Assembly: GCF_013122565.1 (NCBI RefSeq)
Contig: NZ_CP053258.1
From: Escherichia coli
Lineage (GTDB): Bacteria; Pseudomonadota; Gammaproteobacteria; Enterobacterales; Enterobacteriaceae
Length of the DNA: 64,000 bases
Direction: 5' to 3' (one strand)
Part shown: positions 3,862 to 64,000 of the stretch, in pieces
Numbering within the stretch: position 1 is the first letter of the stretch
Layout of the letters: every line of letters starts with the position of its first letter
Made by a program: the position numbers and the translations under genes
The notes under the pieces: model-generated
Seen by the model: the letters and a program-made list of their open reading frames with translations, nothing else
What the model was told of the DNA's origin: nothing
The model's database searches: none

Positions 3862-6800
3862 ATGAAAAAGTTACGCTTAGCCGCCTGCATGCTAATGCTG
3901 GCGCTGGCAGGGTGCGACAACAACGATAACGCGCCAACAGCGGTGAAAAAAGATGCGCCTTCTGAAGTTACTAAAGCGGCCTCTTCAGAAAACGCGAGTT
4001 CAGCAAAACTCTCCGCGCCAGAGCGACAAAAACTGGCACAACAGAGTGCCGGTAAGGCGCTGACATTGCTGGATCTCGCTGAAGTCCAACTTGATGGTGC
4101 AGCCACGCTGGTGCTGACGTTCTCCATCCCTCTCGACCCGGATCAGGATTTCTCACGCGTTATTCATGTCGTCGATAAAAAAAGCGGCAAAGTGGATGGT
4201 GCCTGGGAGCTGTCAGATAATCTTAAAGAGCTGCGTTTACGCCACCTCGAACCGAAACGTGATTTGATCGTTACTATTGGCAAGGAGGTCAAAGCACTCA
4301 ACAACGCAACCTTCAGTAAAGATTACGAAAAAACTATAACTACCCGCGACATCCAACCCAGCGTCGGTTTTGCCAGCCGTGGTTCGCTGCTGCCTGGTAA
4401 AGTCGTTGAAGGGCTGCCGGTAATGGCGCTCAACGTTAATAATGTCGATGTTAACTTCTTCCGCGTTAAGCCAGAATCTCTGCCAGCATTCATTAGCCAA
4501 TGGGAATACCGCAATTCGCTGGCGAACTGGCAGTCAGACAAACTGCTGCAGATGGCGGATCTGGTCTACACCGGACGGTTTGATCTCAATCCTGCGCGTA
4601 ACACCCGTGAAAAATTATTGCTGCCGCTGGGCGATATCAAACCGCTTCAGCAGGCGGGCGTGTATCTGGCTGTGATGAATCAGGCTGGACGTTACGATTA
4701 CAGTAATCCCGCGACGCTGTTTACGTTAAGTGATATCGGCGTTTCAGCTCACCGTTATCACAATCGTCTGGATATCTTTACCCAAAGTCTGGAAAACGGC
4801 GCGGCCCAGCAAGGAATTGAAGTCTCTTTATTAAATGAGAAAGGGCAGACTCTGACTCAGGCAACAAGTGACGCTCAGGGGCATGTGCAGCTGGAAAATG
4901 ATAAAAATGCGGCATTACTGCTGGCACGTAAAGACGGTCAGACAACGCTACTCGATTTAAAACTTCCGGCGCTGGACTTAGCAGAATTTAACATTGCTGG
5001 CGCGCCAGGCTATAGCAAACAGTTTTTCATGTTTGGCCCGCGCGATCTTTATCGCCCAGGTGAAACGGTCATCCTCAATGGTTTGCTGCGTGATGCAGAC
5101 GGTAAAGCGTTGCCCGATCAACCCATCAAGTTAGACGTGATTAAACCCGACGGGCAGGTACTCAGGAGCGTCGTTAGTCAGCCGGAGAATGGCCTCTACC
5201 ACTTAACCTGGCCACTCGATAGCAATGCGGCAACCGGTATGTGGCATATTCGCGCTAACACGGGCGATAACCAGTATCGGATGTGGGATTTCCACGTCGA
5301 AGATTTTATGCCAGAGCGCATGGCGCTGAATCTGACCGGTGAGAAAACCCCGCTTATGCCGAAAGATGAAGTGAAATTCTCCGTGGTGGGGTACTACCTG
5401 TACGGTGCACCTGCTAATGGTAATACTTTGCAAGGGCAACTTTTCCTGCGCCCACTGCGTGACGCTGTGTCAGCCTTACCTGGTTTTGAATTCGGCGATA
5501 TAGCTGCCGAAAACCTTTCCCGCACGCTGGATGAAGTTCAGTTGACGCTGGATGATAAAGGGCGCGGCGAAGTTTCTACAGAAAGCCAGTGGAAGGAAAC
5601 GCATTCCCCATTACAGGTTATTTTCCAGGGTAGTTTGCTGGAATCGGGCGGTCGCCCGGTGACGCGCCGCGCTGAGCAGGCTATCTGGCCTGCCGATGCA
5701 TTGCCGGGGATCCGTCCGCAGTTCGCCTCGAAATCGGTTTACGATTATCGCACTGACAGCACGGTGAAACAGCTCATTGTTGATGAAGGCAGTAACGCCG
5801 CTTTTGACATCGTTTATAGCGATGCGCAAGGCGTGAAAAAAGCTGTGTCGGGCTTGCAAGTGCGCCTGATTCGCGAACGCCGTGATTACTACTGGAACTG
5901 GTCAGAAGATGAAGGCTGGCAGTCACAGTTTGATCAAAAAGATCTGATCGAAAATGAACAAACTCTGGATCTTCAGGCGGATGAAACCGGTAAGGTCAGT
6001 TTCCCGGTAGAGTGGGGCGCTTATCGTCTGGAAGTCAAAGCGCCGAATGAAGCGGTCAGTAGCGTGCGTTTCTGGGCTGGCTATAGCTGGCAGGACAACA
6101 GCGACGGGAGCGGTACCGTGCGACCCGACCGTGTCACGCTGAAACTGGATAAAGCCAGTTATCGCCCTGGCGATACCATCAAGTTGCATATTGCCGCGCC
6201 AACGGCGGGTAAAGGTTATGCGATGGTCGAGTCCAGTGAAGGGCCGCTGTGGTGGCAAGAGATTGATGTTCCGGCTCAAGGGCTAGATCTGACGATTCCG
6301 GTCGATAAAACCTGGCATCGTCATGATCTGTATTTAAGTACACTGGTGGTACGTCCTGGCGATAAATCTCGCTCCGCGACGCCAAAACGCGCGGTTGGGG
6401 TGTTGCATCTTCCGCTTGGTGATGAAAACCGTCGCCTCGATCTGGCGCTGGAAACACCAGCAAAAATGCGTCCCAATCAGCCATTAACCGTGAAAATTAA
6501 AGCCAGCAATAAAAATGGTGAGATGCCAAAACAGGTGAATGTGCTGGTGTCTGCCGTTGATAGCGGTGTGCTGAATATTACTGACTACGTTACCCCCGAT
6601 CCGTGGCAGGCGTTCTTTGGTCAGAAACGCTATGGTGCAGACATTTACGATATTTACGGTCAGGTCATTGAAGGTCAGGGGCGTCTGGCAGCTCTGCGTT
6701 TTGGTGGCGATGGTGATGAGCTGAAACGTGGTGGTAAACCGCCGGTCAATCACGTCAATATTGTCGCGCAGCAGGCGCTGCCGGTAACGCTCAATGAACA

Positions 6801-8823: not shown

Positions 8824-11136
8824 ATGCCTCGCCTGTTAACCAAACGCGGCTGCTGGATAACGCTGGCAGCTGCGCCCTTTCTCCTTTTTCTTGCAGCGTG
8901 GGGAGCAGATAAACTCTGGCCTCTACCGCTGCATGAAGTCAATCCCGCACGAGTGGTCGTGGCGCAGGATGGTACGCCGCTCTGGCGCTTCGCCGATGCT
9001 GACGGCATCTGGCGTTATCCGGTAACAATCGAAGATGTTTCTCCACGTTACCTTGAAGCGCTGATCAATTATGAAGATCGCTGGTTCTGGAAGCATCCGG
9101 GGGTGAATCCATTCTCGGTGGCGCGCGCAGCATGGCAAGATCTCACTTCGGGACGGGTTATTTCCGGTGGCAGCACGCTCACTATGCAGGTTGCTCGTCT
9201 GCTTGATCCTCACCCCAAAACATTTGGCGGCAAAATTCGCCAGCTCTGGCGCGCGTTGCAACTGGAGTGGCATTTGTCTAAGCGTGAAATTCTGACCTTG
9301 TATCTTAACCGCGCTCCGTTTGGCGGTACGTTGCAGGGGATCGGTGCGGCAAGTTGGGCTTATCTCGGAAAATCGTCTGCGAATTTAAGCTATTCCGAGG
9401 CGGCAATGCTGGCGGTGTTGCCGCAAGCGCCCAGCCGACTGCGCCCGGATCGCTGGCCGGAACGTGCCGAAGCCGCGCGTAATAAAGTGCTCGAACGGAT
9501 GGCTGCGCAAGGTGTGTGGTCCCGTGAGCAGGTAAAAGAGTCAAGGGAAGAACCCATCTGGCTGGCACCCCGACAAATGCCGCAACTGGCACCGCTGTTT
9601 TCGCGCATGATGCTCGGTAAAAGCAAAAGCGACAAAATTGTTACTACGCTGGATGCCGGTCTTCAACGACGTCTGGAAGAACTGGCGCAAAACTGGAAAG
9701 GACGATTACCACCGAGCAGCTCACTGGCGATGATCGTGGTTGATCATACCGATATGCGTGTTCGCGGCTGGGTGGGATCGGTTGATCTCAACGATGATTC
9801 ACGCTTTGGTCATGTCGATATGGTCAATGCGATCCGATCGCCAGGATCGGTGCTCAAACCGTTTGTTTATGGTCTGGCGCTGGATGAAGGCTTGATCCAC
9901 CCGGCATCACTGCTGCAAGACGTCCCCCGGCGCACCGGTGATTATCGACCAGGTAATTTTGATGGCGGTTTTCATGGCCCGATCAGCATGAGCGAGGCGC
10001 TGGTGCGCTCGCTGAATTTACCTGCTGTGCAGGTGCTGGAAGCCTATGGCCCGAAACGGTTTGCGGCAAAGTTACGCAATGTTGGATTGCCGTTATATTT
10101 GCCCAACGGTGCTGCGCCGAATCTTTCACTCATACTCGGCGGCGCTGGTGCAAAACTGGAAGATATGGCGGCAGCGTATACCGCGTTTGCTCGCCACGGC
10201 AAGGCAGGCAAATTGCGCTTACAGCCTGACGATCCGCTGCTTGAACGGCCTTTAATGTCGTCGGGGGCGGCGTGGATCATTCGCCGGATTATGGCTGATG
10301 AAGCGCAACCCTTGCCGGATAGTGCCTTGCCGCGCGTCGCCCCACTGGCATGGAAAACGGGCACCAGCTATGGCTATCGTGATGCCTGGGCGATTGGGGT
10401 TAACGCTCGCTATGTCATTGGGATCTGGACTGGCAGACCGGATGGCACGCCCGTTGTTGGTCAGTTTGGCTTTGCCAGCGCCGTACCGCTGTTGAATCAG
10501 GTTAATAATATCTTATTGTCGCGCAGTGCTAATCTGCCGGAAGACCCGCGCCCGAACTCAGTCACTCGTGGCGTTATCTGCTGGCCGGGCGGACAGTCTT
10601 TGCCGGAAGGTGACGGTAACTGTCGCCGCCGCCTGGCAACCTGGTTGCTGGACGGGAGCCAGCCGCCAACTCTATTACTGCCGGAGCAGGAAGGCATTAA
10701 TGGCATTCGTTTTCCCATCTGGCTGGATGAAAACGGCAAACGTGTTGCCGCTGATTGCCCTCAGGCGCGACAAGAAATGATAAATGTCTGGCCGCTACCG
10801 CTGGAACCCTGGTTGCCCGCATCAGAACGCCGCGCTGTGCGCTTACCACCGGCCTCGACAATTTGCCCGCCATACGGTCACGATGCACAACTCCCGCTGC
10901 AGCTGACAGGCGTTCGCGATGGCGCGATTATTAAACGTTTACCGGGCGCAGCAGAAGCGACTTTGCCGGTGCAATCAAGTGGAGGAGCAGGTGAACGCTG
11001 GTGGTTTCTGAATGGCGAACCGTTAACTGAACGCGGGCGCAACGTGACCCTGCATTTGATGGATAAAGGCGATTATCAATTGCTGGTGATGGATGAGGTG
11101 GGGCAAATCGCGACAGTGAAATTTGTCATGCAATAG
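8824..11136 (+). CDS. pbpC: Penicillin-binding protein 1C
   Basis: 770 aa; ATG immediately follows yfhM stop (TAAATG). Confidence 0.95.
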   Translation: MPRLLTKRGCWITLAAAPFLLFLAAWGADKLWPLPLHEVNPARVVVAQDGTPLWRFADADGIWRYPVTIEDVSPRYLEALINYEDRWFWKHPGVNPFSVARAAWQDLTSGRVISGGSTLTMQVARLLDPHPKTFGGKIRQLWRALQLEWHLSKREILTLYLNRAPFGGTLQGIGAASWAYLGKSSANLSYSEAAMLAVLPQAPSRLRPDRWPERAEAARNKVLERMAAQGVWSREQVKESREEPIWLAPRQMPQLAPLFSRMMLGKSKSDKIVTTLDAGLQRRLEELAQNWKGRLPPSSSLAMIVVDHTDMRVRGWVGSVDLNDDSRFGHVDMVNAIRSPGSVLKPFVYGLALDEGLIHPASLLQDVPRRTGDYRPGNFDGGFHGPISMSEALVRSLNLPAVQVLEAYGPKRFAAKLRNVGLPLYLPNGAAPNLSLILGGAGAKLEDMAAAYTAFARHGKAGKLRLQPDDPLLERPLMSSGAAWIIRRIMADEAQPLPDSALPRVAPLAWKTGTSYGYRDAWAIGVNARYVIGIWTGRPDGTPVVGQFGFASAVPLLNQVNNILLSRSANLPEDPRPNSVTRGVICWPGGQSLPEGDGNCRRRLATWLLDGSQPPTLLLPEQEGINGIRFPIWLDENGKRVAADCPQARQEMINVWPLPLEPWLPASERRAVRLPPASTICPPYGHDAQLPLQLTGVRDGAIIKRLPGAAEATLPVQSSGGAGERWWFLNGEPLTERGRNVTLHLMDKGDYQLLVMDEVGQIATVKFVMQ

Positions 11137-53018: not shown

Positions 53019-53022
53019 TCTT

Positions 53023-53057
53023 CAGCCCGACGAACTGTTTCGCCGGGCTGATTTTTT
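53023..53057 (+). terminator. Intrinsic terminator after perM, overlapping focB stop
   Basis: cagcccgacgaactgtttcgccgggctg followed by ATTTTTT. Confidence 0.6.
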
Positions 53058-53904
53058 AGGGTTCCTGACGTAAATAAATAGCCCGATAACAAATACTCAC
53101 CAGCACTGCACCGCCGATAATATTACCCAGCATCACCGGGAGCAGATTGGCGGTAATAAAATGGCTGACCGTCAGTGCCGGAAAATTGTCTGCGCTACTG
53201 TGCGCCAGTTGCCAGAAGGGGGGAGGGGCGAAATGGCGAATGGCAATGGCGAACGGAATCACAAACAAATTGGCGATACAGTGCTCAAAGCCACTGGCGA
53301 CAAACAGGGTGATGGGCAAAATCATGGCGACGATTTTGTCGCATAACGAACGCCCGCAATAACTCATCCACAGCGCCAGGCAAACCATCAGATTGCACAT
53401 AATGCCGAGGCTGACAGATTCAGTAAATGTATGATGCATTTTGCCCTCGGCGCAGTGTAAAACCGCGACTCCCCACATCGCGTTTTCACTCATCACCAGC
53501 CCGGAAAACCAGATTAACAAACTGAAACAGGCAATACCTGCCAGATTACCGCAGGCCACCAGAAGTGCGTTAATCAGCCATGTTCGCCAACTAATAACGC
53601 CCCGACTTTTTGCCATCACCGTCATTACCGACGAGGTGAACAGGCTGGTGCCGCAAACCGCCAGCAAAATAAAGCCGAGTGTAAAGCAAAGGCCGCCCAC
53701 CAGATGGGTTAATGCCTGTGAAGACGGGGCATCGGCGATAACGGAAAGGTAAAAAGTAAATCCGATCGCCATAAACACGCCAGCGGACATCGCCATTAAA
53801 AAGACCGACACTTTACTGCGGGCAATTTTATGGGCGGCAATCCGTTCAGCGATTGCCGCTTTTCTGGCGCTCAACTGCAAGTCGAAAGAGAGTTTGTTTC
53901 TCAT
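53056..53904 (-). CDS. focB: Formate channel FocB (FNT family)
   Basis: 282 aa; polytopic membrane protein downstream of the hyf genes. Confidence 0.93.
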   Translation of the reverse strand: MRNKLSFDLQLSARKAAIAERIAAHKIARSKVSVFLMAMSAGVFMAIGFTFYLSVIADAPSSQALTHLVGGLCFTLGFILLAVCGTSLFTSSVMTVMAKSRGVISWRTWLINALLVACGNLAGIACFSLLIWFSGLVMSENAMWGVAVLHCAEGKMHHTFTESVSLGIMCNLMVCLALWMSYCGRSLCDKIVAMILPITLFVASGFEHCIANLFVIPFAIAIRHFAPPPFWQLAHSSADNFPALTVSHFITANLLPVMLGNIIGGAVLVSICYRAIYLRQEP

Positions 53905-53925: not shown

Positions 53926-55938
53926 TTACAACACCTCGCGAACCGAGATCCCCAGACGCTGCATTCGTGACAGCAGCGTGGTGCGCTTCATCCCTAATCG
54001 TGTCGCCGCGCCACGGGGCCCGGCAACAATGCCATTGGTTTCTCGCAATACCTGAACAATGCGCTGAGGTTCTTCTTCGTCATTCTCTGGCGTCGTCGGG
54101 TGCAGCAACTGCGCCATTGAACTGCGAAGCGCTGAATCTTCATTTAGCGTCGGCAGTAAACGGCTTTGTCGGACATTAAGATGTAAATTCAGACTGTTAC
54201 CGCGAGTCAGCAGTACCGCTCGCTCAATCACGTTTTCCAGCTCGCGCACGTTGCCCGGCCAGTCCCACGACATCAACTGGCGTAGCGCCTCGGTCGGGAT
54301 GGCGTCAATTGCGCGATTCATATGGCGCGCCATTTTTTGCGTGAAATGTTTTGCTAAAAGAGGGATATCTTCCGGACGGTCGCGCAGCGGCGGCAATTCC
54401 AGTGGGAAGACATTCAGGCGATAAAAGAGATCGCTGCGAAACTGGCGATCTTCAACCATTTGCCACAAATCACGGTTGGTGGCGGCAATGACTCTGACAT
54501 TCACCGGGATCGTTCTACTCCCGCCGAGACGCTCAATTTCCCGCTCCTGCAATACGCGCAGCAGTTTAGGCTGAAGTTCTAACGGCAGATCGCCAATTTC
54601 ATCGAGAAACAACGTGCCGCCATCGGCAATTTCAAAACGACCACGATGGGTATTAATCGCACCAGTAAACGCCCCTTTGTCATGACCGAATAACTCACTT
54701 TCCAGAAGACTGGCGGGGATGGCAGCGCAGTTGATTTTGACCAGCGGCTTGTCGCGTCGCGGGCTAAGTTGATGGATCGCTCTGGCGATCACCTCTTTGC
54801 CGGTTCCGGTTTCACCACAAATCAACACCGTACTGTCGCTCTTCGCCACAATATCTACCTGCTGGAGCAGGTCTTCCATTGCCTGGCTTTGATAGATAAT
54901 GTCACCGACGCCCAGATTCGAAAGGAGCTGCTCGCTAAGCTGGTGGTTTTCTTGCTGCAAACTTTCCTGCAAATCGGTCATGCTACGCCAGGCATCGGCA
55001 TTGCCAACGGCAATAGCGATGCGATCGGCTATGTGTTGTAGTAGCTGGCAGTTTTCCTCACTAAAGAGAGTGGAAGAGGTATGCGCCAGCAACAATGCAC
55101 CCGGTGTATGGTTGCCAAAGGTAAGCGGTATAAGGAGCGCAGATTCGCAGCCGTTAGATGCAAGTAAGTGTAATAACGGGTCGCGTTGCCAGAGAAACAG
55201 ATCGTCTGCACGGTGCGTCAAGGTCGGTTGTCGGGTTTGTAGCGTTTGTGTCAGCAATACACTGTCGCCAGGCATATTGCGTGGCAGACACGCACAATGT
55301 GAGGCAGAAAGATCGCTGCACCACAGGCTGAACTTCTCGTTCTTTCGATGATCGCCCAGTACCATACTGACTGAAGCCAGACCGAAAAAATGATGGATCT
55401 CACGAGCGACGTCAGCGATCAGATCGTCGAGATCAAGATGTGACAGCACTGCATTAGTGATATCCACCAGTACCCGATGATGATCGCGATCTTTCTCCAG
55501 CAAACGCAGCGCCACCTGTTGTTCTTCATCATTGAGCCATGATTGCAGAACCGGGGTGATAATGCGTGCCAGCCAGTTAAACAGTGTGCAATCCTGGGGA
55601 GTAAAACGGCTGCCGTGGGTACGTATAAAGCGTAGCTCCGCCATTCCACTACTGCCGAGAAGGACGGCGTGACGCGAATAATCGACCATCTCGCCCTGAT
55701 ACTCTGTTGTTGCCGTCACATCGCTGCCATCATCATGGTAGCGGTAATAGAAGTTGCTTTTGAGAACATGCAGTTCAATAAGTTGTACCGGGCTGAACGG
55801 CGGCGGCAGCGGGATGAAGGCGCGTAATAAAGACGCCTTGCCGTGTTTCTGTGCTAACCGCTCCGCGAGCATTCCGTTTACCGCTTCAATTGTTATTCCT
55901 TGTGGCGGGGCAAACATCGCCTCGTCTGACATAGCCAT
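53926..55938 (-). CDS. hyfR: Sigma54-dependent transcriptional activator HyfR
   Basis: 670 aa from MAMSDEAMF...; GAFTGA motif; C-terminal HTH. Confidence 0.93.
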
Positions 55939-55967
55939 CAACAGTCCTTATTAATGAGAAATCCTTC

Positions 55968-56381
55968 TCACGCAATTTTTCTGGCCATCAGATAGATGGC
56001 CGGTTCCTGCACAATTTCATCCAACAGATGAATGAATTGAATGCTACGCGCTTGCCACACAGACGTCGCGTCATCCGCCAGTGGCGCGAATGCCCGGGTC
56101 AACAGGGCGGTGTGGCTGGTGTCAATAACAATCTCACCAAAAGTCATCACCCCCAGCATCTTACGTCGGGCTTGCTCCTCTTCGACCAGTGCAAGCCAAT
56201 CTTCGTATTCCGTCAGTGGGCAGCGGAAGGCGACATTCAGACAATCAATCACGCCAACGTGATGACCGATAGCCAGTGAGTAATACATTACCTGAGAGCT
56301 GTGTTCCGGCATCTCGTCGCTACTGGCGACAAACTTTTTTCGCAGCGTCCAGAAAACAATTTCCCCGCACTCTTCAGTCAT
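55968..56381 (-). CDS. hyfJ: Hydrogenase-4 maturation/assembly protein HyfJ (HycH-like)
   Basis: 137 aa from ATG at 56381 ([10 protein letters not shown]...), overlapping hyfI stop by 8 nt. Confidence 0.85.
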
Positions 56382-57132
56382 GTAACCCCCGGAGTACGCG
56401 AAAGAGTTGCTGAACGATACTATTGAGACGCGGATCGTCGGCTTCGCGCAACCAGGTGTTAACCTGATTTCCTGTAGGATCATCGCTTAAATGGCGCAGG
56501 AGCCGATCGCAAATTTCTCGCCCCTGACGATAGCCTGCCAGCCGCCGCGCTTCTCGCTCAACGGCGATACGCTGTGATGGCGGGATCTGCGGCCACAGCG
56601 GTTGCATAGTCACCCCGGTGGGATCGCGATAATCCACCGCGTGAATCTTCTGTTGCAGCAAACCGAGCGCCACGGCGAAACCGTGAATGGTGGCGGCCGG
56701 TGTTGGCGGGCAGCCGGGGATCCAAACATCAATGGGGACAATGGTGTCGCTGCCGCCCCAGACGCTGTAGAGATCGTGGAAAATACCGCCGCCGACACCG
56801 CACGCGCCGTAGGAAACACAGATTTTATGATCGGGGGCAGACTCATACGCCCGAAGTGCAGGCATACGCATCGCCCGGGTGACTGCGCCAGTAAATAACA
56901 AAATATCGGCGTGACGCGGTGATGAAACAACCTTAATGCCAAAACGTTCTGCGTCGAATACTGGTGTGATGGCGGCAAAAATTTCGATTTCACAGGCGTT
57001 GCAGCCGCCGCAATCGACGCGATAAACGTAGGCTGAGCGACGGATATCCTGTAGCAAATGCCGCTTCATCTTTTGCGTTTGCTCGTCTAGCATGATGGGC
57101 TGGCTGACATGTTGTGTAAGCACTGGACTCAT
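56374..57132 (-). CDS. hyfI: Hydrogenase-4 small subunit HyfI
   Basis: 252 aa; NuoB-like Cys motifs. Confidence 0.93.
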
Positions 57133-57674
57133 AGCTGCTCCTTAGCCACCAGCGGTACATCTGTATCGTCGTTGATCAGCGTCGCGCGTTGTTTGCACTC
57201 CGGGCAGACGCTCGCTTGCGCCCGCAACATTTCGCGGTTTTGTGGCGCATTTTGTTGCTGTGCCAACAATTCAGCAGCCAGTGCGACGGTTTTTTGCGGG
57301 GCAAACGGGCGTTCGCAACGGCTGCAACGTTGTAGATGGAACGTCGCGCGGGTATAGAGATCGGCTTTATTGGTGACGGTCAGTTCAAAGTTATTGGTAA
57401 GCTGAATGGCTCTGGTCGGGCACACTTCTTCACAACGTCCGCAGTAAATACAACGCCCCAGATAGAGCTGCCAGGTGCGCGAATTTTGCTGGTTGTCGGT
57501 CTGGATAGTCAGCGCATTTGCCGGACAAGCACAGGCGCAGGCACCGCAGGCAATACATTGGCTGGGCATCAGGTCCGGTTTCCCGCGAAAGCCTGGGCTG
57601 ACCTCCAGTGGCGCGAAGGGATATTTCACCGTCGCGGTTCCGGCGCGCATAATAGTTTTCAGTAACTTCAGCAT
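57129..57674 (-). CDS. hyfH: Hydrogenase-4 Fe-S subunit HyfH
   Basis: 181 aa; CxxCxxCxxxCP ferredoxin motifs. Confidence 0.93.
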
Positions 57675-57683
57675 CTTCTGTCC

Positions 57684-59399
57684 TTACTTCAGCGGCGAAC
57701 GGTTACGATCAATGCCGTAGCGTTCGATCTCTTTATACGGCACGGTTTTTGACTGGCGCTTGCGCACATCAACCAGCGTCACACGGTCGGTACAGGAGTA
57801 GCAGGGATCAAGGCTACCGATAATCAGCGGTGCGTCAGAAACGGTATTGCCGCGTAGCATGTAACGCAGCACCGGCCAGTTGGCGTAGGTGGCGGCACGA
57901 CAGCGCCAGCGGAACAATTTTTGGTTATCACCGAGCATGCTCCAGTGCACGTCTTCACCGCGTGGCGCTTCAACAAAGCCGAGCGCGAATGCGTGAGGTT
58001 TATAGCTAAAGCCTTCGGTCAGCAGCGGGGTATCCGGCATGTTGTCGAGGGCAAATTCCAGCATTGCCAGCGAATCAAACGTCTCTTTGACACGGACCAT
58101 CACGCGGGAGAAGACATCGCCGCCGGTAAAGGTAAACAATGTTTTTGGAATATTGCCGTAGTCGGCGTAGGGGTGATCAAAGCGCAAATCACGGGCAAAA
58201 CCACTGCCGCGGATCAGCGGTCCTACGGGGCTATAATCACGGGCGATTTGTCGGTCGAGAATGCCAATGCCCTGAGTGCGTTGTTCCATATTCGGCGTGG
58301 CAAGCAGCATTTCTACCAGCTCGGACACGTCGGCGCGCATCTCGCGCACCAGTTTCAGCGTTTGCAGACGTTGCTCTTTGAGAATATCGCGGCGAACACC
58401 ACCAATCAGATTCAGACCGTAGGTTTTACGCGACCCGGTCAGCAATTCCGCCATCGTCATCGACTTTTCCCGCACGCGGAAAAATTGCATAAAGCCGGTA
58501 TCAAATCCAACAAAATGGCAGGAGAGGCCAAGGTTGAGCAAATGACTGTGCAGACGTTCGACTTCCAGCAGAATCGAGCGAATAGTATGCGCTCGTTGCG
58601 GCACCTCAATACCCAGTGCATTTTCAACCGAGTTGGTATAGGCCACACTGTGGGCAAAACCGCAAATCCCACACACGCGGTCCGATAAGAAGGTCACTTC
58701 GTTGTAGCCCATCCGCGTTTCTGCCAGTTTCTCCATGCCGCGATGGACATAAAACAGGCGGTAATCAGCATCGACAATTTGCTCGCCATCCACAAACAAG
58801 CGGAAGTGACCCGGTTCATCGGAGGTGATATGCAGCGGGCCGACAGGGATCACCCGCGCATCGCTGTTGCCCTCATTGATAAACGGATACGTTTCGGTAT
58901 CAGTCGTCGGTTCAGGGCGCAGTCGATAATCCATCGCATCTTTGCGCAGCGGATGCATATCTTCCGGCCAGTCATCGGGCAACACCAGGCGACGCTGATC
59001 AGGCAGGCCAACCGGAATCAGCCCGTACATATCGCGAATTTCTCGCTCGCCCCAGACCGCGGCAGGGACGCGCGGTGTGACTGACGGAAACTCCCGACTG
59101 TCGGCATCGACCAGTGCCTTCACCACGATCCAGCATTTTTCGGCCCCTTCCATTGAAAGGGCATAATAAACCGCGTAATGACCGTTAAGTGTCCGCTCGT
59201 CGTTGCCAAACAGAACCGGAAGCCAGCCATCATGTTGATAATAAAGATAATGTACAACGTCAGGCAGCAGATTGATTTTCACCGTAATGGTAACCTGTTC
59301 AGGCGTTTGTCGCTCTTCATCCAGCACCGCGCCGGGGAACTGCGTTTTCAGGGCGGCGAGAATCGCTTCGCCACGATTTGACGATGAATTAACGTTCAC
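57684..59399 (-). CDS. hyfG: Hydrogenase-4 [NiFe] large subunit HyfG
   Basis: Start taken at GTG 59399 with GGAG SD ([11 protein letters not shown]..., 571 aa); RVCGIC and DPCYSCTDR Ni-binding motifs; track ORF starts at ATG 59444 inside hyfF. Confidence 0.9.
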
Positions 59400-60969
59400 T
59401 GTGTTTCTCCGAAACAGATGCGGTGCCTGAAGGCAAAAAATCATGCCAGGTGCTACGTTGTGCAGGCAGGTCGTGCGTCCCTGAGAGGACTATAGTGGAA
59501 GCGCCCGCCAGGATCCTGATGACAGGTTGTGGAATATGCGTTCCCATCGCCAGCATCATGACCAGCAGAATCACCATTGGCGAGGTGGTCAACCAGCCAA
59601 GTTCACCCCGGTTAACGGCCTGCGGCGGTTTCGCCATTAACACCCGCGCAGCCATCCGTACCAGGCCCGCCAGCACCAGCGTTAACAGCAATAACAGCAG
59701 GACGATAATCAGCAGGTGATTACGTGCCAGTCCGGCGGTAACGGTCATAAATTCGCTAAGAAAAATGTTGAAGGGCGGCATCCCTGCCAGCGCCAGCGCA
59801 CCGCCGCCAAACAGCACGGCGGTAAATGGCATGATTTTGAGCATCCCGCAGACGACGTTGAGATCGCGCGTGCCGTACTTGAGCAGTACATTGCCGGAAC
59901 CGCAGAACAGCAGCGTTTTTGCCAGACTGTGGTTTAAGGTGTGCAGCAGCGCGGCAAAAATTCCCAGCGGCCCGCCAATGCCTAACGCCACCGCGACCAG
60001 TCCCATGTTCTCCACGCTGGAGTACGCCAGCAGACGCTTAATGTCCCGCTGCACCAGAATGAAAAATGCCGCCACGGCAACCGACAACATGCCGAAGATG
60101 AGCAACAACCGGTTGGGGAAATCGCTGCCGATGGCCTGGCAAATAATGATGTAATAGCGAATCAGCACCAACAGTGCGCAGTTCAGCAATACGGCGGAGA
60201 GCAGGGCGCTGACCGGACTCGGCGCTTCACTATGAGCATCCGGCAGCCAGGCGTGCATGGGAAATAGCCCGGTTTTGGTGCCAAAGCCAATTAGCACAAA
60301 CACAAAGGCCAACAGCATTAATGTTGGGTCAAGCAAGGACGATTGCTTAAGAACCTCACTCCAGAATATCGCCATTTCTGCCTGCGGCATAACGCTGGCG
60401 GCGTTGGCGTATACCAGCACGGTACCGAACAGACCAAAAGCGACACCAACAGTACAAATAATGATGTACTTCCATGCTGCTTCCAGCGATGAACGCTGAC
60501 CGTAAATGCCTACCAGAAACGCCGAGCTTAAGGTGGTGGCTTCGATCGCCGCCCACATCACAATCAGGTTATTGCTGGTAACAACCAGCAGCATGGTGAA
60601 CAAAAACAGATGAAAGAAACCGTAGTAATCGCACAGCGTAACAGGTGAAAGCTCGCCGTGTGCCACTTCATGACGCATGTAGCCAATCGAGTAAACACCG
60701 GTGAGAAAGCCAATCACACCAAGAATGGCGAGGAACAAACCGCCCAGACCATCAATATGAAGCCACAGTCCCGCAGCGAATATTTCTCCCGCATCAGCGG
60801 CAGTTTGGACCACCCAGAGTGCCAGAATCAGCAGCAGTGTGATCCCTAAGCTATGTAATACTGTCACGGCGCGAGTCGCAGAGTGCCCCCGTTTCCGGCA
60901 GGCAAAACAGAGCAGCGAAAAAAGCAGCGGCGTGAGCAGGAGTAAAGCGAACATCACAGAATAACTCAT
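59389..60969 (-). CDS. hyfF: Hydrogenase-4 membrane subunit HyfF (NuoL/M/N-like)
   Basis: 526 aa. Confidence 0.93.
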
Positions 60970-60973
60970 CTCA

Positions 60974-61624
60974 TTATCCCTTCAGCGCGGTCAAGTTGTT
61001 CACGTCCAGCGTGCCGTGGGTACGCCATATTTTTCTTGCCAGTAACACCATCACAATGACGGCGAAGATGGCGTCGGTAGCGATACCAATTTCCACCAGT
61101 TCCGGTGCACGCCAGGCTAGAAGCGCCAGCACCAGATGGGAGCCGTTTTCCATCAGGCAGTAACCAAAAATTTGCCGCAGGATATTGCGCTGGCTAACAA
61201 TGCACAGCAGGCCAAGCAGAAAATGACCTAACGCCACCGCCAGCGCCGGTTTCAACCCGGTAGCCATCGGTAGCTTCACGGGCTGAACGACAAATGCGCA
61301 AAGCAGGACAATTAACGCCGCGAGCAGTGCCATCATTGCCGGACCGAATAACGCTTTTTCAGGGATGTTCTGGGGAATATTTCGTGCAGCGTAAGTCATG
61401 ATTAACGGTACCAGCAGCACTTTGGTGATAAAGGCGCTGGCGGACCAGATCAGCAGTTGCTCTGTGGCGAACAGGCACGAGAGAGTGGCGAAAATAGACA
61501 CCAGCACCAGCGACTGGCAGGCGTAAAATCCGCATGACAGGCGATAGCTTTTGACGCTAATCACAAACAGCGATGTCAGCATCATCAGTCCCGCCAGATT
61601 ATTTACGATCATAGAACCGGTCAT
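60974..61624 (-). CDS. hyfE: Hydrogenase-4 membrane subunit HyfE
   Basis: 216 aa. Confidence 0.9.
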
Positions 61625-61635
61625 TCATCATCTCC

Positions 61636-63075
61636 TTACTGCAACCAGGTCGCGGCGATTACGCTGGAAATCAGCGACATCACAATCAGTACAATCAACA
61701 CCAGGCGCATTGACCCTGGCAGCGGTGCGGCATTGGCGACGGCCTCGCTCGGTTTGCCCGGCACGACGCGACCAAACCAGCGAATAAACCAGGCGAAACT
61801 GGCGACCGATTCAATCATCAGCAGAATCATGGCGGGCAGCAGGATCCAGTACTCCACTGACAACGCAAAACCGGCGGCAAACAGCGGGAATTTACTGAAG
61901 AAGCCGTTGAACGGCGGTACGCCGGTAATCGCCAGCGCTGCCACGCAGAAACCCACGCCAGGCAACGGCAGGGTGTGCAATACGCCACGCAGACGCGGCA
62001 ACAAGCGCGTGCCGCAGCTGTAACTCAGCGCACCTGCTACAAGGAAAAACAGGCTTTTAGCGAACGCGTGGTTGACGATGTAGGCGATGCTGCCCTCCAG
62101 CGCCAGCCGCGAGCCGAAGATGGAGAGAGACAAACCGAAGAACATCCAGCCAAGTTGAGTGATGGTCGACCAGGCCAGCAACCGCTTCATATCCTGCTGT
62201 GGCAAATACATCAGAAAGCCATAAAGAATGGTGACCAGGGCCATGACCATGCCAACGCCGCCAATCACATGCGGGATATTGCCGCCGTCGATAATGGCGC
62301 GGGCAAAAATGTAAACGCCCACTTTCACCATCGATGCGGCGTGGAGATAGGCGCTGATCGGTGTTGGCGCTTCCATTGCATCCGGTAGCCACGCTTGCAT
62401 CGGTAGCTGGGCCGATTTCCCCCACGCGGCAAACAGGATGCCGCCATAAACCAGATAACGTGCGTCGCCGTGTAACTCGCTCATCGCGCTAAGCGCAAAC
62501 GTTCCGGTCTGCAAAAACAGCGTGGCGGCGGCAAGATACAACCCCAACGAGCCGATATGAGTGATAAGTAACGCTTTTAGTGCTGAACGCTGCGCTTTAT
62601 CGCTCTGGTAATAACTGATCAACGCCCAGGAGCAGCCGCCCGTAATTTCAAAAAACAACAACTGACCGAGCAGCGTCGAAGAGAGTACCAGTCCCGCCAT
62701 CGCGCCGATAAACAGCAGCAAAAATGCGTAATAACGATTTGTGCCGTTATGCGGGTGTTCGCGATTTTTATCCGTCAGATAACCCGTGGAGTAGATCGTG
62801 ACCAGCAAACCGAGAAACACCACCACAAACAGAATCAGCGTACTCACGCGATCAATGACCAGGCCTAACAACGCCACATCCCCCACGTTGACCAACGTCA
62901 ACGTGACGGCAACTTTATCGGCCTGATAAAACGCGGAGATCAGTGACAACATGCACAGCGTGGTCAGCGCGGCGAACAAAACCCCCCATTCGGCGGCCCG
63001 ACGTTGTGGCGAAAACGAAACGACCAGTGCGCCGATAAAAGGCAGCAATAACGTCGTCAGAGCAAGATTTTCCAT
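61636..63075 (-). CDS. hyfD: Hydrogenase-4 membrane subunit HyfD
   Basis: 479 aa. Confidence 0.93.
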   Translation of the reverse strand: MENLALTTLLLPFIGALVVSFSPQRRAAEWGVLFAALTTLCMLSLISAFYQADKVAVTLTLVNVGDVALLGLVIDRVSTLILFVVVFLGLLVTIYSTGYLTDKNREHPHNGTNRYYAFLLLFIGAMAGLVLSSTLLGQLLFFEITGGCSWALISYYQSDKAQRSALKALLITHIGSLGLYLAAATLFLQTGTFALSAMSELHGDARYLVYGGILFAAWGKSAQLPMQAWLPDAMEAPTPISAYLHAASMVKVGVYIFARAIIDGGNIPHVIGGVGMVMALVTILYGFLMYLPQQDMKRLLAWSTITQLGWMFFGLSLSIFGSRLALEGSIAYIVNHAFAKSLFFLVAGALSYSCGTRLLPRLRGVLHTLPLPGVGFCVAALAITGVPPFNGFFSKFPLFAAGFALSVEYWILLPAMILLMIESVASFAWFIRWFGRVVPGKPSEAVANAAPLPGSMRLVLIVLIVMSLISSVIAATWLQ

Positions 63076-63091
63076 ATTCCGTCAGTGCTCC

Positions 63092-64000
63092 TTACAGACC
63101 GGTTAACCAGAAGACCCATGCAAGCGCAGCAAGGCTGAAGCCAAGCCAGGTCACATGGTGAATGAGTAAAAATCGCCCGCGTGCCAGCGTGTTTTCTGCG
63201 ATAGAGGCCAGAACAAAAATCAGCAAAACCTTGAACAGCGTAACGACAAGTGAAATCAGCAGGCAGGCGAGAGAAAGCTCTTGCGCGCGCCCAAAGGGCA
63301 GAAACAGGGCCACAAACAGTGCTGCCATCACGACCTGTTTCAGCCCCAGCCCCCATTTCGCCAACGCCAGCCCGGCACCGGAATATTCGGTCAGCGGGCC
63401 TTCCTGTAATTCCTGTTCTGCTTCAGCAACATCAAAGGGAATTTTTCCCATCTCAATGAAGCAGGCAAAACCACAGGCCAGTAACGCCAGGACGGTGGTT
63501 AGCGGCGAGTTCCAGCCCGTTGCCAGCGTATTGCTGATCATCTCGATATGCGTGGAACCTGCTATCAGCGCCAATACCAGCAGTGAGAGAATGAGCATGG
63601 GTTCGACCAGAATGCCGAGCGTCAACTCGCGACTGGCACCGACTCCCGCAAACGGGCTTCCGGTATCCAGCCCGGAAAGAGCAAAGAAAAAACGAAACAG
63701 GGCAAGAAGATAGATAAGGGTGATCAGATCGCCGCCGCCCGCAAAAGGGGAAACGGTAATAAATAGTGGTAGGGCCATCGCCAGCACCAGCATGCTGCTG
63801 ATTAATACCCACGGCATCAGGCGGAACATCAGACCTGAAGTTGTCGGCGCAACTTCCTGGCGTTTAAACAGTTTGTGGATATCGCGATAATCCTGCCAGA
63901 TCCCCGGTCCGCGGCGGGAGTGCATTCGCGCGCGTATCTGCCGGGAAATACCCGTAAAAAGCGGGGTTAGCATCAGCAGAATCACGGCCTGTGCTAACGC
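63092..64000 (-). CDS. hyfC: Hydrogenase-4 membrane subunit HyfC (NuoH-like), 5' end beyond window
   Basis: Reading frame stays open to the window edge (...ALAQAVILLMLTPLF...). Confidence 0.9.
   Translation of the reverse strand, partial: ALAQAVILLMLTPLFTGISRQIRARMHSRRGPGIWQDYRDIHKLFKRQEVAPTTSGLMFRLMPWVLISSMLVLAMALPLFITVSPFAGGGDLITLIYLLALFRFFFALSGLDTGSPFAGVGASRELTLGILVEPMLILSLLVLALIAGSTHIEMISNTLATGWNSPLTTVLALLACGFACFIEMGKIPFDVAEAEQELQEGPLTEYSGAGLALAKWGLGLKQVVMAALFVALFLPFGRAQELSLACLLISLVVTLFKVLLIFVLASIAENTLARGRFLLIHHVTWLGFSLAALAWVFWLTGL

Follow-up and report, generated by a model that had tools for sequence, protein, structure and literature searches.

The last part of the window, by which we mean the whole 64,000-nucleotide stretch of Escherichia coli DNA that was analysed (contig NZ_CP053258.1), very probably holds the distal three quarters of an E. 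coli-type hyf operon encoding hydrogenase 4 (formate hydrogenlyase-2, FHL-2), read as one minus-strand transcript in which hyfG starts at the GUG at 59399. The locus is an ordinary hydrogenase-4 operon that had been annotated before, and its genes abut or overlap as they do elsewhere in bacteria. Over 8.1 kb, the region aligned end to end with annotated E. coli operons at 98.9%. The genes followed one another on the minus strand as hyfC' (truncated by the window end), hyfD, E, F, G, H, I, J, R, and focB, and this order, hyfC-D-E-F-G-H-I-J and then hyfR and focB, is the one that defines an E. coli hyf-type operon. The window ends within hyfC; the head of the operon, with hyfA, hyfB, and the sigma-54 promoter, falls beyond it. 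The genes were as follows.

63092 to 64000, minus strand: 3' part of hyfC, with its start ~39 nt past the window end; the frame is open to the TAA at 63092 with no internal stop and is collinear with hyfC of RefSeq E. coli, a gene of 948 nt.
61636 to 63075, minus strand: hyfD, 479 aa, antiporter-like membrane subunit; NCBIfam equivalog NF005097, 808.5 bits for a cut-off of 430; 16 nt from hyfC.
60974 to 61624, minus strand: hyfE, 216 aa, Hyf-specific membrane subunit; NCBIfam equivalog NF008556, 367.6 bits for a cut-off of 136; gap of 11 nt.
59389 to 60969, minus strand: hyfF, 526 aa, antiporter-like membrane subunit; NCBIfam equivalog NF005041, 1178 bits for a cut-off of 951; stop TAA at 59391-59389.
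57684 to 59399, minus strand: hyfG, 571 aa, large (catalytic) subunit of the [NiFe] hydrogenase 4, very probably starting at GTG 59399 as in RefSeq and K-12; assigned by HycE alignment and Ni motifs.
57129 to 57674, minus strand: hyfH, 181 aa, ferredoxin-like subunit; NCBIfam equivalog NF006076, 363 bits for a cut-off of 270; 9 nt from hyfG.
56374 to 57132, minus strand: hyfI, 252 aa, NuoB-like small subunit; NCBIfam NF005012, 121.6 bits for a cut-off of 116.
55968 to 56381, minus strand: hyfJ, 137 aa, HycH-like maturation protein; NCBIfam NF011664, 208 bits for a cut-off of 145; start as in RefSeq.
53926 to 55938, minus strand: hyfR, 670 aa, sigma-54-dependent activator; full-length frame, collinear with RefSeq; 29 nt from hyfJ.
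53056 to 53904, minus strand: focB, 282 aa, formate channel and last gene of the operon; open reading frame collinear with the annotation.

A hairpin with a 13-bp stem, at 53051-53022, came after focB. HyfD, HyfE, and HyfF, the extra membrane subunits that separate FHL-2 from FHL-1, were all present with scores above the curated NCBIfam cut-offs.

The closest known system was the hyfABCDEFGHIJR-focB operon of K-12 MG1655 (b2481-b2492), which showed ~98.3-98.4% nucleotide identity with the window and shared with it the gene order, the lengths of hyfD, E, F, H, I, J, and R, and the start/stop overlaps, including the GTG of hyfG. An earlier note, made on the window from its letters, had described the hyf genes as tightly packed with overlapping junctions, and every coordinate and overlap that it gave was present in the sequence. 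Indeed, the ATG of hyfI sits on the hyfH stop (ATGA, 4 nt), hyfI and hyfJ overlap by 8 nt (ATGACTGA, which contains the hyfJ ATG), and the longest hyfG frame, 57684-59444, begins at an ATG 56 nt within hyfF. When read from GTG 59399, hyfG overlaps the last 11 nt of hyfF. Most of 80 related loci had the same junction types: the hyfH/hyfI overlap was 4 nt in 39 of the 80, and the hyfI/hyfJ overlap was 8 nt in 43 of 77 and 4 nt in a further 20. The hyf junctions are within the normal range for an operon.

Such a geometry is of the type seen in translational coupling, with overlaps of 11 nt (hyfF/hyfG), 4 nt (hyfH/hyfI), and 8 nt (hyfI/hyfJ), Shine-Dalgarno (SD) sequences lying within the upstream gene, and SD duplexes of -5.1 to -9.8 kcal/mol. 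With cistrons packed so closely, ribosomes ending one gene might begin the next, notably at the ATGA of hyfH/hyfI and at the hyfI/hyfJ overlap, the remaining gaps being 4-16 nt. RNA folding of the hyfF/hyfG junction gave a structure no different from that of shuffled sequence (z = 0.11), hence it brings no structural argument for coupling and neither supports nor excludes it.

The earlier note had considered a GTG start probable for hyfG. Annotation, literature, HycE alignment, SD strength, and cross-species conservation all pointed the same way. Two features bear on this question.

59407 to 59410, minus strand: SD GGAG of hyfG, within the hyfF coding sequence; anti-SD duplex of -6.6 kcal/mol.
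59400 to 59444, minus strand: upstream extension of the hyfG frame, 45 nt from ATG 59444, judged to lie outside the gene (no SD, no HycE counterpart, not conserved in other species).

The GTG, at 59399-59397, does stand behind the GGAG as had been claimed (59410-59407, minus strand), with a spacer of 7 nt, and its duplex of -6.6 kcal/mol compares with -1.5 kcal/mol for ATG 59444. The RefSeq annotation of both E. coli 14EC033 and K-12 MG1655 places the start of hyfG 11 nt ahead of the hyfF stop, and a GUG start for E. coli hyfG was stated by Finney et al. 2019. We also aligned the long frame with HycE, the large subunit of hydrogenase 3 (formate hydrogenlyase-1, PDB 7z0s chain E). The match opened at residue 22 of the long frame, corresponding to HycE residue 4, that is, 6 residues past the GTG, and HycE had nothing corresponding to the 15 residues ahead of the GTG. 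This agreed with the proposal that the GTG gives the better HycE-type N-terminus: the two N-termini are comparable once hyfG begins there. In hyf-type loci of other species, the hyfG GTG stood 7-8 nt behind AGGAGA in 68 of 71 cases, and the hyfF stop overlapped or abutted it, with a GTGA overlap in 18 loci and a gap of 1-2 nt in 21. In contrast, hycE-type genes in related loci start with ATG and have no hyfF-like gene ahead. From these data we infer that hyfG is translated from the GUG at 59399, using the GGAG inside the end of hyfF, with the hyfF stop falling 11 nt into hyfG; the product would be 571 aa long, a length matching that of HycE.

The rival start is the ATG at 59444, from which the HyfG product would be longer by 15 N-terminal residues, 586 aa in all, and hyfG would overlap hyfF by 56 nt. 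This codon opens the longest hyfG frame, is an ATG, and was found in all E. coli sequences examined, but it lies inside the hyfF coding sequence, so that its conservation within E. coli is expected anyway. We find its use hardly credible, as it lacks an SD (-1.5 kcal/mol), is followed by an extension that is absent from HycE, and is adopted by neither the RefSeq nor the K-12 annotation. Moreover, the closest other species have an in-frame stop 36-57 nt upstream of the hyfG GTG and no ATG; among 71 loci of other species, only 8 had any in-frame upstream ATG, and 49 had an in-frame stop within 60 nt. Both starts might be used, the GUG for the main HyfG product and the ATG for a minor, longer isoform. 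Nothing in the sequence precludes this scheme and the frame is open from 59444, yet we hold it to be very improbable: the counter-evidence is the same as for the ATG alone, ribosomes elongating through hyfF would cover the ATG site, and its missing conservation speaks against a selected isoform. ATG 59444 is an in-frame codon inside hyfF, not the start of hyfG. The GTG start is right but known already; it is the current standard annotation and not a correction, so that finding it again merely confirms the present annotation and changes nothing. In ribosome profiling, hyfG/b2487 was absent from the supplements of the INRI-seq paper. Laboratory cultures hardly express the hyf operon (Finney et al. 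2020).

The HyfG protein bore the features of a catalytic subunit. Both Ni-binding motifs were intact, as had been noticed earlier, the N-terminal RxCGxCxxxH-type motif at aa 241-250 (58650-58679) and DPCYSCTDR at aa 531-539 (57783-57809). After R539 came a C-terminal tail of 32 aa (VTLVDVRK...SPLK), of the assembly-peptide kind, which aligned with that of HycE; the cleavage arginine is followed by VTLV in the window HyfG and by MTVV in HycE (PMC7384014). With phmmer, HyfG matched HycE 7z0s_E at E = 2e-292 over query residues 22-586, including the fused NuoC-like N-terminal domain, and HycE is thus a full-length homologue with both Ni motifs and a 32-aa tail. In the NCBIfam search, HyfG reached no model at its cut-off, hence its membership in group 4a rests on the pairwise HycE match.

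Beyond E. coli, the FHL-2 operons of Pectobacterium atrosepticum and Trabulsiella guamensis resembled that of the window in their HyfD/E/F gene set, a hyfG GTG behind AGGAGA, and a 16-aa segment of HyfG (PMC7384014), and their HyfG proteins were 80-85% identical to that of the window. They carry a hyfK protease gene and have demonstrated H2 production (PMC7384014, PMC7654741, bioRxiv 10.1101/563510). The E. coli hyf operon, in contrast, has no protease gene, and its activity is putative.

This bears on the earlier statement that the locus looks functional. The statement held for the content of the window, where none of the complete genes is truncated and HyfG has the undeleted 571-aa form, while function itself is only predicted and hyfA and hyfB lie outside. 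There is a real possibility, though short of an even chance, that the locus is silent or decaying despite its intact motifs and provides no active enzyme in the source strain, a question separate from that of the start codon. Several observations favour this reading: attempts to activate K-12 hydrogenase 4 failed in 15 engineered strains (PMC7654741), hyf was wholly missing from 1129 of 5426 E. coli genomes, frameshifts, stops, or deletions affected hyf in 9 of 12 sampled E. coli genomes, BL21(DE3) had frameshifts in hyfC and hyfD, and the window operon is devoid of a hycI-type protease gene. Against it, the complete genes in the window, hyfD to focB, all have their full length and are free of the lesions seen elsewhere, HyfG retains the 16-aa segment that is missing from K-12, and a hydrogenase-4 enzyme can be matured by HycI, which rescued a P. 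atrosepticum hyfK mutant (PMC7654741).

The segment just mentioned distinguishes two forms of hyfG in E. coli. HyfG in the window is the ancestral form of 571 aa. K-12, BL21, and about half of the E. coli genomes that carry hyf bear a shorter gene, with an in-frame deletion of 48 bp. Aligning the window with K-12 and 14EC033 placed it as follows.

58187 to 58244, minus strand: 48-bp segment and two flanking 10-bp direct repeats GCCCGTGATT (repeats at 58244-58235 and 58196-58187).

The K-12 HyfG is 555 aa long and lacks the 48 bp between the two GCCCGTGATT repeats, whereas the 571-aa form also occurs in 14EC033 and O157:H7. The segment encodes 16 aa (aa 389-404) that are present in the window and gone in K-12-type alleles. 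Among E. coli genomes, we counted 2153 intact and 2113 deleted alleles, the latter making up ~49% of the hyf-carrying genomes. The window HyfG contains the core VGPxxRxSGxxRD within aa 389-404, and the S, V, G, P, R, S, G, R, and D of the deleted motif were invariant in 80 of 80 homologues from other species. An AlphaFold model of HyfG, built on a 30-sequence alignment, was mediocre (mean pLDDT of 65.8, sheet regions below 50); it showed the 16-aa segment as ordered (pLDDT ~74-85) but was too weak to tell the effect of the deletion. Our literature search, which did not extend to the founding papers (Andrews 1997 and Self 2004), returned no published mention of the deletion, so that the latter may be known.

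Why hydrogenase 4 of E. coli is inactive has been described as a mystery of long standing (bioRxiv 10.1101/563510). The laboratory strains whose enzyme has been termed silent, K-12 and also BL21, both have the deletion, and it may bear on why the K-12 enzyme is "silent". Carried further, the idea would be that the window holds one of a minority of still-intact E. coli hyf operons with the ancestral HyfG, and that the "unknown biosynthetic problem" to which Finney et al. 2020 refer is this deletion. We advance this tentatively and consider it rather unlikely; if true, an operon like that of the window would yield an active E. coli FHL-2. The observation could matter for formate hydrogenlyase workers: with a deleted catalytic subunit in K-12 and B and an undeleted one in window-like strains, the question of inactivity becomes directly testable by one allele swap.

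Incidentally, many E. coli hyf operons bear additional frameshifts or stops. The 48-bp deletion as a marker of decayed operons was a candidate that we rejected, as pseudogene flags were found in 5 of 6 sampled genomes with the deletion and also in 4 of 6 with an intact hyfG.

The visible part of the hyf operon, which specifies hydrogenase 4 (formate hydrogenlyase-2), formed a single co-oriented run of ORFs on the minus strand, from hyfC to focB:

63092-64000, minus strand: hyfC, 3' part, cut by the window end (partial ORF)
61636-63075, minus strand: hyfD, 479 aa
60974-61624, minus strand: hyfE, 216 aa
59389-60969, minus strand: hyfF, 526 aa
57684-59399, minus strand: hyfG, 571 aa
57129-57674, minus strand: hyfH, 181 aa
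56374-57132, minus strand: hyfI, 252 aa
55968-56381, minus strand: hyfJ, 137 aa
53926-55938, minus strand: hyfR, 670 aa
53056-53904, minus strand: focB, 282 aa

HyfD, HyfE, HyfF and HyfH well exceeded the NCBIfam equivalog cut-offs. In HyfG, the large catalytic subunit, both nickel-binding motifs were found intact, as the earlier note had claimed, the N-terminal one at aa 241-250 and DPCYSCTDR at aa 531-539, the latter followed by a C-terminal tail of 32 residues. The 8.1-kb stretch of the window aligned over its whole length with the annotated hyf operon in 4288 complete E. coli genomes, and the best identity reached by 55900-64000 among 5426 complete E. coli genomes was only 98.9%. For the neighbouring 24 kb (20000-44000), top identity in the same set was 97.8%. 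These values place the source in an E. coli-like Escherichia lineage that is divergent or unsampled in that collection. Beyond focB, 5 nt past its stop, lay a hairpin (53022-53051, minus strand; 13-bp stem with 8 G-C pairs), which is probably the operon terminator, though its tail is not T-rich.

The HyfG of K-12 MG1655 has 555 aa, as compared with 571 aa in the window. By DNA alignment, K-12 hyfG has lost 48 bp in frame between two copies of GCCCGTGATT, which accounts for this difference; the deletion junction is at 10643-10652 of the K-12 locus (L002). The window (58187-58244) and strain 14EC033 kept both copies together with the intervening 38 bp. The deletion costs K-12 16 residues, corresponding to aa 389-404 of the window HyfG. 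This segment was present in all 80 HyfG/HycE sequences from other species that cover the stretch, with S, V, G, P, R, S, G, R and D invariant, and a counterpart could be made out in the large subunit of archaeal MBH (6cfw_L). Within E. coli, a probe for the intact segment matched 2153 complete genomes and one for the K-12 junction 2113, hyf being present in about 4294-4297. O157:H7 carries the intact form, whereas BL21(DE3) carries the deleted one, with frameshifts in hyfC and hyfD as well. Word searches of the literature, which did not cover the founding papers, returned no paper on this 48-bp (16-residue) deletion, and we do not claim that it is unreported; it was absent from the text of Finney et al. 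2020 (PMC7654741), Finney 2019 and the Trabulsiella preprint (bioRxiv 10.1101/563510).

Finney et al. 2020 detected no hydrogenase 4 activity in 15 K-12 strains, which included strong promoters and HyfG-HycE tail fusions. The K-12 deletion might be taken as a simple dead allele, but phenotypes have been reported for the hyfG knockout of K-12 BW25113 (PMC10758574), and these speak against such a reading. We put forward tentatively, and consider rather doubtful, the idea that an active E. coli formate hydrogenlyase-2 is specified by the intact allele type, as in the window, but not by the K-12/B type.

We then drew 12 evenly spaced genomes from the two hit lists, six with the hyfG deletion and six with intact hyfG. 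RefSeq flagged further hyf pseudogenes in five of the six deletion genomes and in four of the six intact ones. Nine of the 12, and BL21(DE3), bore lesions (frameshifts, nonsense codons, deletions of 208 or 216 bp, or an IS insertion), which across the E. coli operons affected hyfA, B, C, D, F, I, R or focB. Alignment to the window showed three genomes to share a 1-bp deletion in hyfI. In hyfD, a 208-bp deletion and a 1-bp deletion were each found across both hyfG allele classes, and a 216-bp deletion was also seen; focB contained an IS element. On this alignment the lesions are real and inherited, and the occurrence of identical ones with both hyfG allele types suggests recombination. Moreover, hyf was wholly absent from 1129 of the 5426 genomes. 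None of these lesions was seen in the window by alignment or in its ORFs, so the earlier suggestion that the locus looks functional holds for the part within the window, that is, without hyfA, hyfB and the promoter. Only a minority of E. coli have a hyf free of lesions, as in this visible part.

The tight packing of the genes was as first described: hyfH and hyfI overlap by 4 nt (common ATGA), and hyfI and hyfJ by 8 nt (common ATGACTGA). With a start at GTG 59399, hyfF and hyfG overlap by 11 nt; the other junctions, from hyfC onward, were gaps of 16, 11, 4, 9 and 29 nt. In related loci of other species, the hyfH/hyfI overlap was 4 nt in 39 of 80, the hyfI/hyfJ overlap 8 nt in 43 and 4 nt in 20 of 77, and the hyfG-hyfH gap 9-16 nt in most. 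The junctions are thus ordinary for an operon, the same types dominating related loci.

The longest hyfG ORF opens at ATG 59444, 56 nt within hyfF, and GTG 59399 had been proposed as the probable start instead. Five independent lines agree in supporting this GTG. A GGAG at 59410-59407 stands ahead of it at a spacing of 7 nt, and the GTG is the start used by RefSeq in 14EC033 and in the curated K-12 MG1655 annotation, 11 nt before the hyfF stop. The anti-SD duplex was predicted at -6.6 kcal/mol for GTG 59399 versus -1.5 for ATG 59444, the remaining hyf genes ranging from -5.1 to -9.8. The match to HycE (7z0s_E, E = 2e-292) opened at long-ORF residue 22, facing HycE residue 4, so that the GTG product would be about three residues longer than HycE N-terminally; the 15 residues encoded upstream of the GTG had no partner in this alignment. 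RNA folding at the hyfF/hyfG junction was no better than for shuffled sequence. A GUG start for E. coli hyfG is given in Finney et al. 2019 and is standard annotation as well; for this well-known operon it is nothing out of the ordinary.

We also scanned one genome per species, which gave 80 loci from other genera and none from Escherichia; start-codon counts rest on the 71 with a hyfF homologue directly upstream of hyfG. A GTG 7-8 nt past AGGAGA (about 3980-4000 of each locus) was the start in 68 of them, in genera including Kosakonia, Trabulsiella, Proteus, Morganella, Providencia, Pectobacterium, Serratia and Yersinia. The three exceptions (two Pasteurellaceae, one Formivibrio) had ATG at the same place, and hyc-type homologues start with ATG. 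An in-frame ATG lay further upstream in only eight of the 71, and an in-frame stop within 60 nt upstream in 49. The SD rule, applied automatically, had wrongly settled on a TTG in three Providencia/Morganella loci, where inspection by eye showed AGGAGAAATAACGTG, as in their relatives. The hyfF stop overlapped the GTG as GTGA in 18 loci and fell 1-2 nt before it in 21, the arrangement expected for termination-reinitiation coupling. Such wide retention of a non-ATG start suggests selection, perhaps for subunit stoichiometry.

Compared with its closest non-Escherichia relatives, E. coli hyfG lacks four codons directly after the GTG: Citrobacter sp. Awk 4 and Klebsiella indica (L003 and L004, ~3989-4012) read GTG AAT TAT TCA GAC AGC GTT AAT, and the window (59388-59399) GTG AAC GTT AAT, hence an hyfF/hyfG overlap of 11 nt, not 23. 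Finally, a locus labelled Chryseobacterium sp. 18061 (L023, CACSKA010000005.1) carried a hyf operon of Enterobacteriaceae type, whose HyfG shares 85% identity with that of the window and whose junction resembles Trabulsiella or Pluralibacter; the assembly is probably mislabelled or contaminated.
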